Shown: in pieces, positions 45,618-53,338 of the stretch | Layout: every line of letters starts with the position of its first letter | How positions within the stretch are numbered: position 1 is the first letter of the stretch | NCBI GenBank assembly: GCA_001819815.1 | Contig: MHNO01000009.1 | Coordinates: 147,016 to 211,015, forward strand | Direction of reading: 5' to 3' | Source of the DNA: Candidatus Ryanbacteria bacterium RIFCSPHIGHO2_02_FULL_45_17b | GTDB lineage: Bacteria > Patescibacteriota > Minisyncoccia > Ryanbacterales > 2-02-FULL-48-12 | Length of the DNA: 64,000 bases | Notes under the pieces: generated by a model | What the model was told of the DNA's origin: nothing | The model's database searches: none | Seen by the model: the letters and a program-made list of their open reading frames with translations, nothing else | Translations under genes and position numbers: made by a program

Positions 45618-46319
45618 TCACTCTAATGTTATTTCGGTTAATCCGTCAACGGCGATAGTCACAAACGCACTCCTGTTTTTTGCGACCACCGTGCCGCGAA
45701 GCTCAAAATAATATGTTTCCCCTGCAGAAATTTGTACCTGGGGCGGGCCTTGATCAAAAAGAATAGATACCGCACTTGACGCTGAATCAAGAAAGCCAAT
45801 TTGCTTTCCTACGCGATTTTCTTTAGTAGTAGTATTGCGAAGAAATGCCGGAACAGAAAAAAGATCATCAGAATACGCGTATACCTCAAGATCTTTTATG
45901 GAAACATCAGAAAGAGAAATAGCGTATGTTGTGGAAGGAATGATTGTATCTACCGCGCCTCCTGTAATAGAAAAACGGTACAAGATTGCAAGCGGTTGTG
46001 AAAGATACACGGAAGGAAGCGAAACAAATTTCCATACAGCTTCGGTTGATGTAGAAACAGCTTTTTCTTCTGTCTTGGCAGGTACGGACGACTCAACAAC
46101 AGTGCTTTTTTCTGGAGGTCGCGCCTCTTCGGCAATAATCTCCAAAAGGCGAACCTGTATGCGCGCAACGGCGGCAATAATCTCATTAAGCTGTTGTTGG
46201 ATACTTTCAAGGAGCGACGCGTGCGTGGAAGCGGCCGAGGGTGAAGTCGGTACCGAGAGCGCAAAAAGTAACATAACGACGACAATAAAATAGAAAGATC
46301 TTGAATAAAAATGTTTCAT
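45618..46319 (-). CDS. Hypothetical secreted protein
   Basis: Signal peptide; no motif. Confidence 0.4.
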   Translation of the reverse strand: MKHFYSRSFYFIVVVMLLFALSVPTSPSAASTHASLLESIQQQLNEIIAAVARIQVRLLEIIAEEARPPEKSTVVESSVPAKTEEKAVSTSTEAVWKFVSLPSVYLSQPLAILYRFSITGGAVDTIIPSTTYAISLSDVSIKDLEVYAYSDDLFSVPAFLRNTTTKENRVGKQIGFLDSASSAVSILFDQGPPQVQISAGETYYFELRGTVVAKNRSAFVTIAVDGLTEITLE

Positions 46320-46343: not shown

Positions 46344-47342
46344 CTACTTCCTTTGTACCACTCTTTTAACCGCCGCAACAATAGAAGATACCCCCATGCC
46401 AAATTTTTCTAAAAGTTCGGCAGGTTCGCCCGATTCACCAAACCGATTCTGCACGCCGACAAACTCCATGGGAACCGGATGTGTTCGCGCCAACACTTCC
46501 GCCACCGCAGACCCCATACCGCCCATTACCTGATGTTCTTCCACCGTTACAACCGCGCCTGTACCTTTGGCGGCCGCTATAATCGTCTCCTCGTCCATAG
46601 GTTTTATTGTGTGATTATTCACCACAAGAACGCCGATGCTTTCTTTCTCAAGTTCTTGGGCGGCAAGGATCGCATTGTGCACTAAAGACCCGCACGCGAT
46701 TATAGCTACAAGTGGGGGTGGGTTTGTCGGTTCCCACACGCGATATGCTTTCCCTATTTGAAACGGCGTTTCTGGCGTCGTAAACACGGGTGTTTTTTCA
46801 CGCGCAAGACGGATATACACAGGCCTTGACAACCCCGAGGCCGCAACCGTTGCTTTTCGGGCTTCATGTGCGTCGCATGGCGCAATAACGGTCATGTTGG
46901 CAATGGGGCGCATAATGGCAATATCTTCAATTGCCTGGTGAGTCGCGCCGTCGGGACCAACTGAAACCCCCGCGTGAGACCCCGCAATTATCACATGTCG
47001 TTCATTGTAGCATATTGTGGTGCGAATTTGTTCCCAATTACGCCCGGGGCTGAACATGGCGTATGAAGATATAAAGGGAATTTTTCCACACGCCGCCATA
47101 CCAGAAGCAACCGCGGCCAAATTCTGTTCGGCAACCCCGATTTCCACAAACCGTTCGGGATATCTTTTAGCAAACGCTTCCATTTTAGTTGATTCGGTCA
47201 GATCGGCGCACAATCCCACCACATTTTGATTTGCATCCGCGGCTTCCACCAAACCCAAACCAAACCCCTCACGAATAGGTTTTTGATCCAAAGATTTCAA
47301 ATCAAGGATATCGGAAACAAGTTTTATGTGCTCTGGAATCAT
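46344..47342 (-). CDS. Transketolase, C-terminal (pyrimidine-binding + C-domain) subunit
   Basis: GFGLGLVEAADANQNVVGLCADL...VGVAEQNLAAVASGMAACGKIPF. Confidence 0.85.
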   Translation of the reverse strand: MIPEHIKLVSDILDLKSLDQKPIREGFGLGLVEAADANQNVVGLCADLTESTKMEAFAKRYPERFVEIGVAEQNLAAVASGMAACGKIPFISSYAMFSPGRNWEQIRTTICYNERHVIIAGSHAGVSVGPDGATHQAIEDIAIMRPIANMTVIAPCDAHEARKATVAASGLSRPVYIRLAREKTPVFTTPETPFQIGKAYRVWEPTNPPPLVAIIACGSLVHNAILAAQELEKESIGVLVVNNHTIKPMDEETIIAAAKGTGAVVTVEEHQVMGGMGSAVAEVLARTHPVPMEFVGVQNRFGESGEPAELLEKFGMGVSSIVAAVKRVVQRK

Positions 47343-47348
47343 AGAAAA

Positions 47349-47942
47349 CTAATCAATAAATTTGAACGTGGAGAGAAATTGTTTAAAATCTTTTTTGTTT
47401 TTGGTTGATGTCTTGTACAACGTAGTTAGCATGGCTGTCATTCCATCAGCATAATTCATTTGGGCTGTTACTGTGGTTGAATCTCCCCAATCAATCATCC
47501 AAGCCCCAGCCAACTCACATCTCATGTCTTGAGGGTAAGCTTCACAATAAGTTATACCAGCAAGCGTTAAATCTATAGTAGATATCACAATAATATCATC
47601 CCCACCCTCAATAAGATGAATAGGCCACTTCGACAAACTTATCGACCACGAAGATGGATACTTAAACTCAAACCCATACTCTTCATTGAGGTATGTTTTC
47701 CAGTCTGATGTGTCATCTTGTGTAATGCTTGGCTTTGCACATTCCTCAAACTCGCAATTTTGCCCCGTGCGCCCTACATACGAGCCATCAGGGCAGAGTT
47801 TTGCTTCCAGCGTGCACGAGATTCGAAAAGAGTGCTGTGCCTTGCGGGGAACGCCAAAATAACTTGCTACTGCAATAATGCTCACTGCCATAAGTAACAA
47901 AGCAACCGCGACAACATGGCTTAGTTTTTCTCGTGCAAACAT
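47349..47942 (-). CDS. Secreted hypothetical protein, paralog A of a three-member family (C-terminal STFKFID)
   Basis: N-terminus MFAREKLSHVVAVALLLMAV is identical to paralog B; shared W(K)TY(L/H)NEEYGFEF(K/R)YP block; ends FKFID. Confidence 0.55.
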   Translation of the reverse strand: MFAREKLSHVVAVALLLMAVSIIAVASYFGVPRKAQHSFRISCTLEAKLCPDGSYVGRTGQNCEFEECAKPSITQDDTSDWKTYLNEEYGFEFKYPSSWSISLSKWPIHLIEGGDDIIVISTIDLTLAGITYCEAYPQDMRCELAGAWMIDWGDSTTVTAQMNYADGMTAMLTTLYKTSTKNKKDFKQFLSTFKFID

Positions 47943-47965
47943 ATTTTTATGTAAAGTTAACTCGA

Positions 47966-48250
47966 TTATTGATTTTTATAAACTCGATCATGATGAGCAA
48001 AATCTATGAATCTAAGTTCACCATTATAAAACTCATAAACCAAAACAAAAGAACCGACATGTAATCGCCGTCGATTTTTAAGCGTGTAACGAAGAGGTTT
48101 TCCCAAAATTGGTTCGCGAATTATTTTCTCCATCTGGTTTGAAAGTTGTTCAAACAGATTATGATCTTTCTTTTTACATTTTCTCACCACTCGCTCAAAA
48201 TTAGGTGAGTAAACAATATGACTAACGTTGGGTGAACGAGAATCCTCCAT
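47966..48250 (-). CDS. Type II toxin, RelE/ParE family
   Basis: RRRLHVGSFVLVYEFYNGELRFIDFAHHDRVY matches the RelE/ParE C-terminal consensus. Start set at the internal ATG. Confidence 0.65.
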   Translation of the reverse strand: MEDSRSPNVSHIVYSPNFERVVRKCKKKDHNLFEQLSNQMEKIIREPILGKPLRYTLKNRRRLHVGSFVLVYEFYNGELRFIDFAHHDRVYKNQ

Positions 48251-48474
48251 CACAGATTCGTTAGCCACTTTTTCATCTCGGCAATAGATGTAAATGACCG
48301 CCCTTCTTTTTTGTCCAAATTATGGCTTACGCGCTCCCATTTTTTGAGTATATCTGAACGTATAAAACGCTCATCATCCATAAGAACGACTTTTTTCAAT
48401 AAATCCAGTTCCTTTTCTACTTTCTCCTGCCGGTGAAATAAACTATTCAACTGTTTTGATGTAACTATAGGCAT
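48250..48474 (-). CDS. Putative antitoxin partner of RelE/ParE
   Basis: 74-aa ORF immediately upstream and abutting the toxin; no independent motif. Confidence 0.45.
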   Translation of the reverse strand: MPIVTSKQLNSLFHRQEKVEKELDLLKKVVLMDDERFIRSDILKKWERVSHNLDKKEGRSFTSIAEMKKWLTNL

Positions 48475-48542
48475 ATATACATACTACTGTAAATATTGAT
48501 AAGACACCAGTATATCATTCATGACCATGCAAAATGAGAAAA

Positions 48543-49394
48543 TTAATCAATAAATTTAAAAGTGGAGAAAATGCTTTCGAGTAATGATTTATTTTCTTTG
48601 TTTCCAACAGTTTGAGTATGCAAGAATATTTGAAAATTGTCCTTGCATATTTCTTTTTCCTCAAACGTAGCCACGCCTGGCCCGTATGAATCTTGAATCC
48701 AGTTTGCGTTTATAGTCTTGGGATCGCAGCCTTTTTGTATTACTATAGTCATGCCTCCTGAAGGTTCTATGCCACCATGCCCCCATTGATCTTGAAAAAA
48801 ACTTTGGACTCCACTGTTGCCTATCTGCCATGTAGGAGGATATCTAAACTCAAACCCATACTCCTCATTATGGTAAGTTTTCCATGAGAGAGCGCTACTT
48901 TCTTTTGGATCATCCTCAATATATCTTGGCACTTGTAAAATACTATACGACTTTAATATTGCGCCGTCGCTCGCCAAACCCTCCGCACGATACCAATATG
49001 TTCTATCACCTATCACAGAATCAACAACCTGTTGAGGCATAGAATCAGTAACCGGCAATGAAAGCACTTTGAGCCATGGGCCATTTTTTAATTCCGATCG
49101 ATAAAACACTAGACTCTTGGCACGAGAAGGAAGATCAGCCCAGTATAAAATAATACTATCTCCCATGTTGAAAGCCAACAAATCTCTCTCAGCGTTTAAT
49201 ACCGTTTGATTGATCGCTTGCGGACTCGGACATTCCGTCAATGTACAATCGGGAACGAGGCGACCAACAGCGCTAGCAAAAGAATTTTCTTTTCGATCAA
49301 CAAGACCAAAATACTCCACAAACGTGATAACCTGCACGGCGACAAGTAACAAAGCAACCGCGACAACATGGCTTAGTTTTTCTCGTGCAAACAT
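48543..49394 (-). CDS. Secreted hypothetical protein, paralog B (C-terminal STFKFID)
   Basis: First ~50 nt identical to paralog A; WKTYHNEEYGFEFRYPPTW block; ends FKFID. Confidence 0.55.
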   Translation of the reverse strand: MFAREKLSHVVAVALLLVAVQVITFVEYFGLVDRKENSFASAVGRLVPDCTLTECPSPQAINQTVLNAERDLLAFNMGDSIILYWADLPSRAKSLVFYRSELKNGPWLKVLSLPVTDSMPQQVVDSVIGDRTYWYRAEGLASDGAILKSYSILQVPRYIEDDPKESSALSWKTYHNEEYGFEFRYPPTWQIGNSGVQSFFQDQWGHGGIEPSGGMTIVIQKGCDPKTINANWIQDSYGPGVATFEEKEICKDNFQIFLHTQTVGNKENKSLLESIFSTFKFID

Positions 49395-49403
49395 ATATCA
49401 CGA

Positions 49404-50063
49404 TTAGTTAATAAACGTAAATGTAGAGACGAGAGCATCAAATAATTCACGACTGCCGAGTACGTTCATACTGGCATGCCGATTACCATGAGAAATCAAG
49501 GCGCGATAATTGCTGACGATACCTAAATAAGTCCCCACTGAATCATATACCGCTACTGCCGTATCTCCCACAATAATATTATTATTGTTTACCGAATAAG
49601 ATACCGCCGGATCGCCTTTGCGGCCAAGCCGCCCTACCGCAAAATAGAGTCCATTGTCCTCCACAAAAAATACCTTTCGGATTGCTTCTTCCCGCGATAT
49701 TTCCCTAAGGACTTCTATACTTGCAACATTATTCACATATCCTTTCTTTTGAAACAGAGGATCAAGAAAATCCACTTGCATATCTTGCTCTTTTATCTGC
49801 CAGGCGACAGGATAGGAAACAGAAAATTTAAGAGCGGGACTGGCATATGTTTGCATCATAGTATCAGTATACCCTTCAAGTTCTTTTTCCAATGTCCGCA
49901 GTTGTTGAAAATAAGGCGCGTTGTCAAGCGCATCAAGGTTATCCACAGCATCGTTTGCTTTGTCGATTAAAAAGAGCGACATGTACCCCGCGATTGCTGT
50001 CATTACAAAAAATGAAAGAGCGGAACGCTGGCCTCTGGTAAAATTTGACGAAATACTATTCAT
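49404..50063 (-). CDS. Secreted hypothetical protein, divergent paralog C (C-terminal STFTFIN)
   Basis: Signal anchor; (S)YPVAWQI and STFTFIN echo paralogs A and B. Confidence 0.45.
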   Translation of the reverse strand: MNSISSNFTRGQRSALSFFVMTAIAGYMSLFLIDKANDAVDNLDALDNAPYFQQLRTLEKELEGYTDTMMQTYASPALKFSVSYPVAWQIKEQDMQVDFLDPLFQKKGYVNNVASIEVLREISREEAIRKVFFVEDNGLYFAVGRLGRKGDPAVSYSVNNNNIIVGDTAVAVYDSVGTYLGIVSNYRALISHGNRHASMNVLGSRELFDALVSTFTFIN

Positions 50064-50991
50064 GCTCGCTTGTTATGACACCGCCAAGCGTCCGCAGTTC
50101 CGCTAAAAACCGCTTGCCCTGTTCTTGCTTTGGAATTTTATCCTCGGGACCTTTTCCGGGCGGGTTTCCGTGCCACCGGTAATCAAATTCAATTTCGGGA
50201 ATTCCTTTGCCCGGAATAGTGTGCGCGATAATGCAAACGGGTCGTTCGTAAATGGCGCGCGCTTCTTCGCACGCATTTATAATTTCATGAAAATTATGCC
50301 CGTTTATTTCAAGCACGTGCCAATTAAACGCCTCGTATTTTTCACGAAGCGGTTCCAGGGGCATAATGTCTTCCGTAATGCCGTCTATTTGAATATTATT
50401 GCGGTCAATAATATTGGTAAGATTTGCGATCCGCAGTTTTCCTGCAAGCATAATTGCTTCCCATGTATTTCCCGCGTCATGTTCGCCGTCTGAAGTAAAA
50501 CAATAAACCTGATTCGGTTTTGCATCAATTCGCAATGCTATCGCCATACCAACTGCTTGCGACAAACCGGATCCCAACGGCCCTGATGTAGTCTCTATGC
50601 CCGGAAGTGAAGTCCGATGCGGATGGCCCTGCAGGCGCGTTCCCAGTTTACGCAATGTCCGTAATTCTTGGAGAGAAAAATATGCCGCATGCGCAAGAGT
50701 CGCGTAAAGCACCGGGCAAATATGCCCATTCGAAAGTACCAAACGATCGCGATCTTCCCAATCGGGGTTGTCTGCATCATGCTTCAATATATGAAAATAC
50801 ATAGCGGTGAAAATATCCGCCATGCCTAAAGGACCCGCCGTATGTCCCGATCCTGCCTCAATGAGCATCTCAATTACGGACACGCGAATATCGTTTGCCT
50901 TTCGTTCGAGAAATTGTAATTTTTCTTGAGTCAACATGTATTCCTGATATAAAGCCCAGCTCCTATTCAACTTCCGGCTGATAATATTCAT
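50056..50991 (-). CDS. Transketolase, N-terminal (TPP-binding) subunit
   Basis: GSGHTAGPLGMADIF...GHPH; TPP motif SDGEHDAGNTWEA. Confidence 0.85.
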   Translation of the reverse strand: MNIISRKLNRSWALYQEYMLTQEKLQFLERKANDIRVSVIEMLIEAGSGHTAGPLGMADIFTAMYFHILKHDADNPDWEDRDRLVLSNGHICPVLYATLAHAAYFSLQELRTLRKLGTRLQGHPHRTSLPGIETTSGPLGSGLSQAVGMAIALRIDAKPNQVYCFTSDGEHDAGNTWEAIMLAGKLRIANLTNIIDRNNIQIDGITEDIMPLEPLREKYEAFNWHVLEINGHNFHEIINACEEARAIYERPVCIIAHTIPGKGIPEIEFDYRWHGNPPGKGPEDKIPKQEQGKRFLAELRTLGGVITSEHE

Positions 50992-53338
50992 TCATGCGTA
51001 CCGGAATGGGAATGACTGCCGCCAAGTTGTCTCCATCAAATTCAATTTTTAACATAAGACCTTCCCGGGTCTCAGCAGAAAAACCCTGGTCAAAAACAAA
51101 ATTTCCCAAACTATACGCAATAACACCCCCGCGGTATTCTTCAATGCCCTCTACCACATGCGGATGATGCCCTATTACCACGCGCGCGCCCGAATCAATT
51201 GCTAAACGTGCAAGATCCTTTTGGCGCGCATTCGGCGCTTGTTCGTATTCTTCTCCAAAATGAAACGACACTATTAGTATATCAACCTTCTTTGCAGCTT
51301 GTAATACGGACTTTTCCACATATGTCTTGCCCGCATTCCCTGCGGGTACTGCCGCAATGCCCGAAAGAGCCTCTTTCGATTGCATCCACAAAGGACCTAC
51401 ATCACTAAATGCAAGAAATCCAATACGCTTCCCGCGAACATCAAACACAGTCGGCTCCAAAGATTCTTTCTCGTTCCATCCCCCGCCCGCGTACGCGACC
51501 CCCGCATGTTGCAGACGGCGCATGGTGTCTTCGAACGCATCACGACTCCAGTCGCCCATGTGGTTATTTGCAAGCGAGACAATATCAAATCCGGCTAACG
51601 CAAGCGTACTCGCTACCTGCGGGTCCATGCGAAAAGAATACGCACTCCCCACATTGGTCCCCTTGTCGGACACCGGACCTTCTAAATTCGCAAATGTTAT
51701 ATCCGCGTTCGCAAGAACATCGCGCGTATAAAGAAATGGAAACATCCAGTCATCGTTGCCGTATTTATGAATTACCTGCTCCACCCCGCGGTTCATCATG
51801 ATATCGCCCGTAAAAAGCATGGAAAGAGAGCGAGACGAATCCTGAAGATCTTCCGCGGTATATTCCACCTGTTGACTCTCGAGCGAAGATTCCAAACCGT
51901 ATGAAAAATTCTGTTTCACCCAGAGGCGCAATCTCTCCACATCAGATTGAAGATTATCCGAACCCAGCACCACAATAGCTATATGACGTTCGGCAAATTC
52001 GCCAAACGGCACCGAAAAAACAGATACGATTGTTTTCTTTGCTTCCGGTATAAAACCTGTCTTGCCGCCTTCAAATGAATTTTTGGAAGCAAAGGGATGA
52101 ATGTTGCGCCACGTTTTATGACTCCGCATTGCCGTCATTTCAAGAAGCGACCGTTTATTATCCCACAAATGCCGAACAAGTTTGAACGTGTCCAGGGCCG
52201 TAGATTTATTTTCTGGATCAAGCCCCGACGGCTCCGCATAGAACGTGCGCACCAATCCAAGGCTTTCCGATTTTTCGTTCATCAGCCGCACAAATTGTTC
52301 GGTGCCCAGCTGACGCGCAATAACATACGCCGCATCATTTGAAGAAGAAAGCAACAACGGCCACAAAAGCTCTCCCGCTTCCATGCGATCTCCCACGCCC
52401 AGCCCGCCCGCTTCTCCATACGCCGCAACATCTGCGTTCGTTACCTCAACCTTCTCAAATTGATTCACTGCTTCCACGGAAATAAGAGCCGTCATTAACT
52501 TGGAAAGAGAAGCGATAGAATGTATCTCCTCAGAATTTTTTTCAAAAAAAAGAAAACTGTTTTCCAGATCTCCCACAAGCGCGGCGTACCCTGAAATAGC
52601 CGGCGGAGGTGAAAACGTATCAATTCCCCGATATCCCAATCGCTCTTCTTCGCGCGTATCAGCTGAGGCAAGAATCAATGCAGGACCGGCGCCATTTGTT
52701 ACAAATAAGGGCGTACCCTTATCAACCAACGAAAAAAGTTTCCTGGCATCTTCCTCGGAAAGCCGAATACACCCGCCGGAGAAACCTTGCGGCACAGGGC
52801 TTCCGTCGGCATAACGAGGCCATCCATGAATAAAAAAGTTTCCAAAAAACTGCATGCTATACGGCATCCAAACATTCCCCATAGTAGAATAATGATTTTC
52901 TTCCTTTGTCTTTATACGATAAGAACCCGTTGGTGTTTCCCATAAAGAGCCGGGCTTTCCCTTGGACACTATAGGAAATTCTGTTTCTAATTTTCCGTCG
53001 CGATAGAGACGTATCATCATTTCGCGCAAATCTGCAAAAAGCGCAACTCCGCTCTCCGGCACAGAGAATGACGGCTGGGAAAGAATCCGTGTCTCATACA
53101 CCTGCGGCCGATTTTTCATAAGAGACGTGTCCGCCACGCGCACAGTTTCTTCACCGCTTCCACCAACACCCTTCAGCGTTTCTGTACCCGTGATAAAAAT
53201 ATAATTGGATGCCCATAACAATGACGTATCAGAAGCAATGTGTTTTATAAAAAAAATAGGAATAGCCATACACACGCCTCCTAACAGGAATACAAAAATA
53301 CCCCACAATACATGTGAACGTTCCTTATGCGGTTGCAT
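50963..53338 (-). CDS. Tri-domain cell-wall enzyme: L,D-transpeptidase (YkuD) + D-Ala-D-Ala carboxypeptidase (PBP5/S11-like) + CapA-type metallophosphoesterase
   Basis: YkuD HGW...GGCIRL; S11 motifs SLSK (SxxK), SSSND (SxN), GGKTG (KTG); CapA motifs TGDIMMNRG and ANNH. One uninterrupted 791-aa ORF with an N-terminal TM. Confidence 0.65.
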   Translation of the reverse strand: MQPHKERSHVLWGIFVFLLGGVCMAIPIFFIKHIASDTSLLWASNYIFITGTETLKGVGGSGEETVRVADTSLMKNRPQVYETRILSQPSFSVPESGVALFADLREMMIRLYRDGKLETEFPIVSKGKPGSLWETPTGSYRIKTKEENHYSTMGNVWMPYSMQFFGNFFIHGWPRYADGSPVPQGFSGGCIRLSEEDARKLFSLVDKGTPLFVTNGAGPALILASADTREEERLGYRGIDTFSPPPAISGYAALVGDLENSFLFFEKNSEEIHSIASLSKLMTALISVEAVNQFEKVEVTNADVAAYGEAGGLGVGDRMEAGELLWPLLLSSSNDAAYVIARQLGTEQFVRLMNEKSESLGLVRTFYAEPSGLDPENKSTALDTFKLVRHLWDNKRSLLEMTAMRSHKTWRNIHPFASKNSFEGGKTGFIPEAKKTIVSVFSVPFGEFAERHIAIVVLGSDNLQSDVERLRLWVKQNFSYGLESSLESQQVEYTAEDLQDSSRSLSMLFTGDIMMNRGVEQVIHKYGNDDWMFPFLYTRDVLANADITFANLEGPVSDKGTNVGSAYSFRMDPQVASTLALAGFDIVSLANNHMGDWSRDAFEDTMRRLQHAGVAYAGGGWNEKESLEPTVFDVRGKRIGFLAFSDVGPLWMQSKEALSGIAAVPAGNAGKTYVEKSVLQAAKKVDILIVSFHFGEEYEQAPNARQKDLARLAIDSGARVVIGHHPHVVEGIEEYRGGVIAYSLGNFVFDQGFSAETREGLMLKIEFDGDNLAAVIPIPVRMNEYYQPEVE

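Follow-up and report, generated by a model that had tools for sequence, protein, structure and literature searches.

Three genes of a Candidatus Ryanbacteria genome encode proteins with a predicted membrane anchor and a PsbP-like domain

The proteins described here are encoded by three neighboring genes, A, B, and C, at positions 47349-50063 of a 64,000-nucleotide (nt) stretch of DNA from Candidatus Ryanbacteria bacterium RIFCSPHIGHO2_02_FULL_45_17b. This whole stretch is referred to as the window. A, B, and C are, with high confidence, membrane-anchored, outward-facing proteins of the Patescibacteria that carry a PsbP-like domain. The conserved ends of the proteins are elements of the fold, and a 53-nt tract that is identical in A and B is most simply read as the product of one conversion-type event. 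The three genes are old paralogs of a very large family in the Patescibacteria, also known as the candidate phyla radiation (CPR). In two Candidatus Ryanbacteria metagenome-assembled genomes (MAGs), all three products are annotated as 'hypothetical protein'. The initial annotation, made from the DNA letters, identified three open reading frames (ORFs) with N-terminal anchors, and both the coordinates and the hydropathy profiles agree with it.

The PsbP-like domain and its anchor

Paralog A (47349-47942, minus strand) is 197 amino acids (aa) long and is composed of an N-terminal anchor, a four-Cys mini-module, and one PsbP-like domain. The domain occupies residues 78-197 (47352-47711, minus strand) and opens with the WKTYLNEEYGFEFKYP hairpin and closes with the FKQFLSTFKFID C-terminal helix. 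Paralog B (48543-49394, minus strand, 283 aa) is made up of an anchor, a remnant of the Cys module, an insert of ~100 aa, and one PsbP-like domain at residues 168-283 (48546-48893, minus strand). Paralog C (49404-50063, minus strand, 219 aa) differs in its anchor, and its PsbP-like domain at residues ~67-219 is divergent.

Two sequence blocks connect the proteins, and both were described correctly at the outset. WKTY(L/H)NEEYGFEF(K/R)YP is common to A and B, and its counterpart in C, QTYASPALKFSVSYPVAWQI, is weak. STF(K/T)FI(D/N) forms the C-terminal end of A, B, and C. In BLASTP, the C-terminal domains of A and B match with an E-value of 1e-11 and their N-termini with 3e-9. C is much more distant, with E-values of 0.03 against A and 1e-3 against B. 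When C is left out of the family profile, the profile still matches it at an E-value of 1.9e-9 in a search of the 408 ORFs of the window, and no ORF besides A, B, and C scores in that search. These results support the three genes as paralogs.

The domain is related to Pfam family PF18933 (PsbP_2), which scores 27.4 bits for A and 26.5 bits for B against a cutoff of 27 and does not match C. PsbP_2 is also matched by 43 of 53 aligned relatives of the domain, with a best E-value of 3.9e-9. When the domain profile is compared with the PDB, the cyanobacterial PsbP proteins 2lnj (E-value 3.7e-4) and 2xb3 (E-value 7.1e-4) are matched over the whole domain, and the alignment spans profile positions 37-168 and chain residues 5-167. 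In this alignment, the family sequence WkTYrNeeYGFEfKYPsdW corresponds to Y-D-x-x-GYEFLYP-x-GW of CyanoP. At the other end, fdqIlSTF corresponds to the C-terminal fdtvaSSF or fktIvSSF of CyanoP.

The structure of A was modeled with alignment-based AlphaFold2 over residues 40-197; a single-sequence model of full-length B, with a predicted local distance difference test score (pLDDT) of 38, was not used. The model of A has a mean pLDDT of 74.5 and contains a hairpin (E42-47/E52-57), then several strands, and finally a C-terminal helix (H141-153). The hairpin is the W-x-TY / YGFEF-x-YP block, and the C-terminal helix covers KKDFKQFLSTF. The model thus has the N-terminal beta-hairpin, central antiparallel sheet, and C-terminal helix of the fold. 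In Foldseek, the four best PDB matches to the model are all PsbP-family chains (9grx, 2xb3, 6kac_P, and 7wff_f). Taken together, the sequence and structural evidence indicates that the two conserved blocks belong to a single PsbP/Mog1-fold domain, one as its opening and the other as its closing structural element.

In the proposed arrangement, a single N-terminal signal anchor would hold each protein in the cytoplasmic membrane, and one PsbP/Mog1-fold domain (PF18933) would face the outside. W-x-TY-x-N-x-x-YGF-x-F-x-YP would form the N-terminal beta-hairpin of this domain, and (F)-x-Q-ILSTFKF would close a C-terminal helix packed against the sheet. Between the blocks, ~100 residues would make up the central sheet and loops, which may vary freely in sequence and length in every lineage, and this free variation accounts for the appearance of conserved ends and a variable middle. 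By analogy with other members of the fold, the conserved hairpin and helix may hold the fold together, and the variable sheet face and loops may provide specificity.

A, B, and C each contain a single hydrophobic segment, located near the N-terminus, in which Kyte-Doolittle hydropathy averages 2.0-2.6 over 19 residues. Their C-termini carry no hydrophobic tail: hydropathy over the final 19 residues averages -0.89, -0.38, and 0.85. The signal anchor, the disulfide-type Cys module, and a fold that is typical of extracytoplasmic proteins make a location outside the cytoplasmic membrane very probable for the three proteins. From the single N-terminal anchor, the four-Cys module (pLDDT 86-94), and the extracytoplasmic location of characterized bacterial and plastid members of the fold, we infer that they are type II membrane proteins whose domain faces outward. 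The A/B-type anchor, M..EKLSH(V/I)VAVALL..AVQVI..EYF, recurs on PsbP-like proteins of other genomes (P0006, P0008, P0009, and L076; P numbers denote related proteins and L numbers loci of other genomes). In locus L002, the anchor differs from that of B only by synonymous changes. The anchor is therefore conserved as a protein, and the DNA identity within the Ryanbacteria genome is recent.

Known proteins of the same fold differ from A, B, and C in several respects. Cyanobacterial PsbP/CyanoP (2xb3, 2lnj) has ~12-14% identity to the domain and carries a lipobox or transit peptide, whereas a signal anchor is present here; in addition, the domain described here often occurs in 2-6 tandem copies. 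The proteins are not PsbP of photosystem II proper, as their NCBIfam PSII_PsbP score of 11.8 bits is below the cutoff of 60. The neighbors are sugar-metabolism genes, with no photosystem gene observed among them, and the source is a Ryanbacteria/CPR MAG. To our knowledge, CPR bacteria are non-photosynthetic and would have no photosystem for such a protein to bind. BT_1490 of Bacteroides thetaiotaomicron (3hlz) is 12% identical and is a 269-residue two-part protein without the common sequence motifs. LpqN (6e5d), Apa (5zxa), and MTC28 (4pws), which are secreted proteins or lipoproteins of mycobacteria, share the fold, have no detectable sequence relationship, and are anchored by a lipobox or a signal peptide. 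The type VI secretion system immunity proteins Tsi3 (4luq) and TplEi (5h7y) have no sequence similarity to the family, and no cognate effector lies beside A, B, or C. By analogy with PsbP/CyanoP, LpqN/Apa/MTC28, BT_1490, and the Tsi3-type immunity proteins, A, B, and C would serve the cell envelope as binding or scaffold modules without enzymatic activity.

A large family of shuffled modules

The PsbP-like domain belongs to a large family. A domain-profile search of 1.84 billion representative proteins matched 16,796 clusters at an E-value of at most 1e-3 and 2,196 at an E-value of at most 1e-10. Most of the best profile matches have 2-6 tandem copies of the domain; P0005 and P0006 have two each. 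The pattern W[KQ]TY[RHL]NEE, searched in one genome per species, gave 321 confirmed loci, nearly all of them in Patescibacteria/CPR MAGs. Gene counts were made for 82 CPR loci, namely 80 of these 321 together with L001 and L002. They contain 135 domain ORFs, and 36 of the 82 loci have at least two such genes. The initial annotation would have been refuted by a lack of further members and of conservation of the C-terminal motif. Both are found, and the reason is mundane: the motif belongs to a very common domain.

Conservation is concentrated at the two ends of the domain. Across 293 domains, the mean frequency of the most common residue is 0.68 in the first 22 columns and 0.60 in the last 15, and it is 0.16 in the ~105 middle columns. 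The same pattern is found in domains of many organisms, so the contrast between ends and middle belongs to the fold family and not to this locus. The variable cores noted at first do hold in the sense that the middle varies. However, the cores of A and B are partly non-homologous and consist of different modules, the insert of B and the Cys module of A, rather than of one diverged sequence.

The proteins are assembled from shuffled modules that include the anchor, the four-Cys mini-module, the ~100-aa insert, and the PsbP-like domain. P0002 has an anchor, Cys module, and insert; P0003 has a Cys module, insert, and A-type domain; and in P0004 the domain is followed by the insert. The four-Cys mini-module of A (residues 43-68; 47739-47816, minus strand; CTLEAKLCPDGSYVGRTGQNCEFEEC) is predicted to be a small beta structure (pLDDT 86-94). 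It has no Pfam match at an E-value of 10 or below and no PDB sequence match. The module is intact in A, and B retains the deleted remnant DCTLTECPSP. It recurs after the anchor in P0002, P0003, P0008, P0009, P0024, and P0026 and in 11 ORFs of the CPR loci, and is possibly an undescribed extracellular module of the CPR.

The insert of B (residues 59-158; 48921-49220, minus strand) is beta-rich, is absent from A, and has no Pfam or PDB sequence match. It is 86% identical over the aligned module (78% in BLASTP) to P0002, a Candidatus Nomurabacteria protein without a PsbP-like domain. In P0003 and P0004, the insert lies before or after the PsbP-like domain. This distribution points to the shuffling of modules, or to their lateral transfer, among CPR lineages. 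P0003 (L001, 8001-8849) is the closest relative of the domain of A and also carries the insert of B. Its gene sits among glycolysis genes (enolase, phosphoglycerate mutase-type, and glyceraldehyde-3-phosphate dehydrogenase), as A, B, and C sit among pentose-phosphate genes. The placement of P0003 is probably a result of genome compaction.

Orthologs are found in related genomes, and the locus is syntenic in L002 and L003. In Ryanbacteria 48_12 (L003), an ortholog of the domain of B with 83% identity is internal to a 543-aa protein that reads ...ERIASTFTVAQTTTAWKTYRNDQYSF... at this point. The ortholog of C in L002 is 54% identical and ends in FSFLFIN, and that in L003 ends in ASFNFLE. The gene order in L002 (3786-8300) is the transketolase N-terminal half (Tkt_N), the C ortholog, a DUF6036 protein, a two-domain PsbP-like protein, and the transketolase C-terminal half (Tkt_C). 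In L003 (8219-9872), the C ortholog immediately precedes Tkt_C. The slot after the C-type gene is filled by a different small cassette in each genome.

Conserved ends, the shared 5' tract, and other explanations

The 5' ends of A and B are identical at the DNA level, as the initial annotation reported, although the shared N-terminus covers 17 residues rather than 20 (at residue 18, A has M where B has V) and C does not take part, as its N-terminus is unrelated. The exact identity extends over 53 nt on the minus strand, 47892-47944 in A and 49344-49396 in B, and includes 2 nt upstream and codons 1-17. Codon choice was compared at residues that are identical in A and B, and the expectation was taken from the codon usage of the window. 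In codons 1-17, the same codon is used at 16 of 16 degenerate sites (5.5 expected); none of 200,000 simulations reached this count, and the product of the per-site probabilities is about 1e-8. The rest of the anchor and the linker are at expectation (9/20 against 8.3, P 0.45), as are the middle (2/14 against 5.4, P 0.99) and the C-terminal motif (6/8 against 4.1, P 0.13). The N-terminal motif has 11 of 14 (7.3 expected, P 0.03). These counts imply that A and B are old paralogs whose synonymous sites are saturated apart from one short homogenized 5' tract. The simplest reading of the tract is one small conversion event between tandem paralogs; a short, recent, gene-conversion-type homogenization would have acted between genes 1.45 kb apart.

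A broader reading is that the genes form a cassette family that varies by gene conversion, as the initial annotation proposed; the surface-exposed middle would be the part that varies, and the conserved termini would serve as recombination handles. The exact tract in otherwise saturated genes, the tandem arrangement as direct repeats, and the weak excess of identical codons in the N-terminal motif speak in its favor. The tract, however, is single and short and is found in two of the three genes. High DNA identity of the flanks beyond protein conservation is seen at one end, in codons 1-17, and the similarity of the 3' motif is explained by amino acid conservation. No silent or truncated copies occur elsewhere in the 64 kb (blastn at word size 7, tblastn, and hidden Markov model searches). 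In public assembled sequences, which make this a limited test, A, B, and C each have one full-length sequence, identical in two MAGs and on 7-12 contigs, and the 90% clusters otherwise hold fragments. The genes also lie within a tightly packed pentose-phosphate/glycolysis run in which C overlaps the transketolase N half, and the same conserved ends are found in hundreds of unrelated organisms. The cassette reading is thus scarcely credible. The pilE/pilS, vlsE, and msp2 loci are gene-conversion antigenic variation loci. The likeness to them consists of tandem related surface-protein genes and, here, one short identical DNA tract; unlike them, this locus lacks silent cassettes, population variants, and long stretches of identical DNA flanking both ends. 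Diversification of the diversity-generating retroelement type was rejected, as there is no template/variable repeat pair and no repeat longer than 63 nt involving A, B, or C; a reverse transcriptase was not searched for explicitly.

The C-terminal hexapeptide was first suggested as a possible undescribed sorting or attachment signal. Its conservation is high (S 0.91, T 0.91, F 0.95, K 0.79, and F 0.97 across the 293 domains), and 97 of the 274 ST[FL]x[FLWI] motifs in 154 relatives lie within 6 residues of the C-terminus. Against this, the other 177 motifs are internal. In P0010 (STFKFIEPKAETIGWKTYRNEEYGF; ...IFSTFKFIEPKAETIGWKTYRNEEYGF), the motif is directly followed by the next domain, and in P0004 by an insert module; the 543-aa protein of L003 has another domain after the motif as well. 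Among the 82 CPR loci, 51 of 133 domain ends are internal. Because the motif is often internal and the B-type domain occurs inside a longer protein, the motif is an element of the fold and not a C-terminal sorting signal. It aligns with the C-terminal SSF end of solved CyanoP and is predicted as a helix end inside the fold (pLDDT 82-87), and it drifts in the orthologs of C. The proteins end 2 residues past the motif with no hydrophobic or basic tail, and so lack the hydrophobic helix and basic tail of the LPXTG/sortase, PEP-CTERM/exosortase, and GlyGly-CTERM signals. That STFKFI(D/N) is a new C-terminal sorting, secretion, or attachment signal is extremely improbable, and this claim falls.

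Immunity is another function of the Mog1/PsbP fold. A, B, and C could be neutralizing proteins similar to Tsi3, TplEi, or Tli4 that guard the envelope against peptidoglycan- or lipid-targeting toxins of competitors or the host. This is very unlikely. No secreted effector gene is adjacent to the three genes, and the neighboring toxin, of the cytoplasmic ParE/RelE type, comes with a small partner of its own. Structural scores are higher to PsbP proper and to BT_1490, and known cognate immunity genes do not resemble a family of this size (16,796 clusters) with its tandem repeats. A wider proposal is that the PsbP-like family is the main diversified surface-recognition repertoire of the Patescibacteria and binds host cells or their envelope. 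The near-invariant ends would frame a hyper-variable core of ~100 residues, the invariant DNA encoding the ends could help recombination to swap cores in the course of evolution, and the 53-nt tract would be one trace of this. Such a role is conceivable and, on balance, unlikely.

Several points count against the assignment of A, B, and C as anchored, outward-facing PsbP-like proteins with one conversion-type tract. The Pfam PsbP_2 scores are at threshold for A and B, and there is none for C. In the AlphaFold2 model, loop residues 90-108 have low confidence, and TM-scores to PsbP are only ~0.45. The contrast between ends and middle is exaggerated, as the 150 top relatives were picked by an end-weighted profile. 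The extracytoplasmic topology is a deduction from the features described above. The 53-nt identity could result from selection on the 5' end of the mRNA instead of gene conversion. Finally, a search of the available literature found no paper that links the PsbP-like family to CPR biology or to a function.

Genomic setting and significance

The three genes lie between the halves of a split transketolase. The N-terminal half (50056-50991, minus strand) matches Pfam Transketolase_N at an E-value of 2.4e-60, and the C-terminal half (46344-47342, minus strand) matches Transket_pyr and Transketolase_C. The halves are 2.7 kb apart, with C, B, a toxin-antitoxin pair, and A in between. The start of C and the stop of the transketolase N half share 8 nt; B begins 9 nt past C. 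A long same-strand run of sugar-metabolism genes surrounds the locus and includes ribulose-phosphate 3-epimerase, a PfkB kinase, GlpX fructose-1,6-bisphosphatase, a DeoC-like aldolase, and a YkuD, Peptidase_S11, and PGA_cap fusion. The fusion (50963-53338, minus strand) is a 791-aa protein with an N-terminal anchor, an L,D-transpeptidase (YkuD), a D-Ala-D-Ala carboxypeptidase (Peptidase_S11), and PGA_cap; it also adjoins the transketolase N half in the related genome of L002. On the other side, a 233-aa protein (45618-46319, minus strand) has an N-terminal signal-like segment and no Pfam match even at an E-value of 10 or below. It is kept downstream of the transketolase C half in L002 (8685-9437).

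The toxin-antitoxin pair separates A from B, and the three paralogs are thus not contiguous. The 100-aa toxin (47966-48268, minus strand) is of the ParE/RelE type and matches Pfam ParE_toxin (E-value 1.9e-7, 32 bits against a cutoff of 23) and NCBIfam RelE_StbE (30.9 bits against a cutoff of 27.9). A 74-aa ORF (48250-48474, minus strand) lies upstream and overlaps the start of the toxin by 19 nt. The toxin family match and the small overlapping partner fit a type II toxin-antitoxin pair. The 74-aa product has no Pfam or NCBIfam match and is a putative antitoxin by position. A promoter-like site lies beside the pair at 48493-48464; the counts in a promoter and terminator scan equal the shuffled expectation. 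Origin of A and B from a two-domain ancestor resembling P0006 of L002, split by a toxin-antitoxin cassette, is unsupported, as the domain of A is nearest to that of P0003 (45-50% identity), and the second P0006 domain is only ~25% identical to it.

A, B, and C are unremarkable local representatives of the known PsbP-like family, and the locus has no special features. What remains of the variable surface family first proposed, for an organism supposed to be host-attached, is a set of paralogs that are very probably displayed outside the cell and that belong to a family diversified and expanded in the host-dependent CPR; the cassette variation does not remain. The ideas of a new C-terminal sorting signal and of a gene-conversion cassette can both be dropped. 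Three 'hypothetical proteins' gain a fold assignment, that of a membrane-anchored PsbP-like domain. In the CPR, the domain ranks with the more abundant extracytoplasmic modules, and Pfam detects it only at threshold. The wider interest lies in the very large and barely annotated PsbP-like family of the CPR, which is a question for the family as a whole and not special to this locus.

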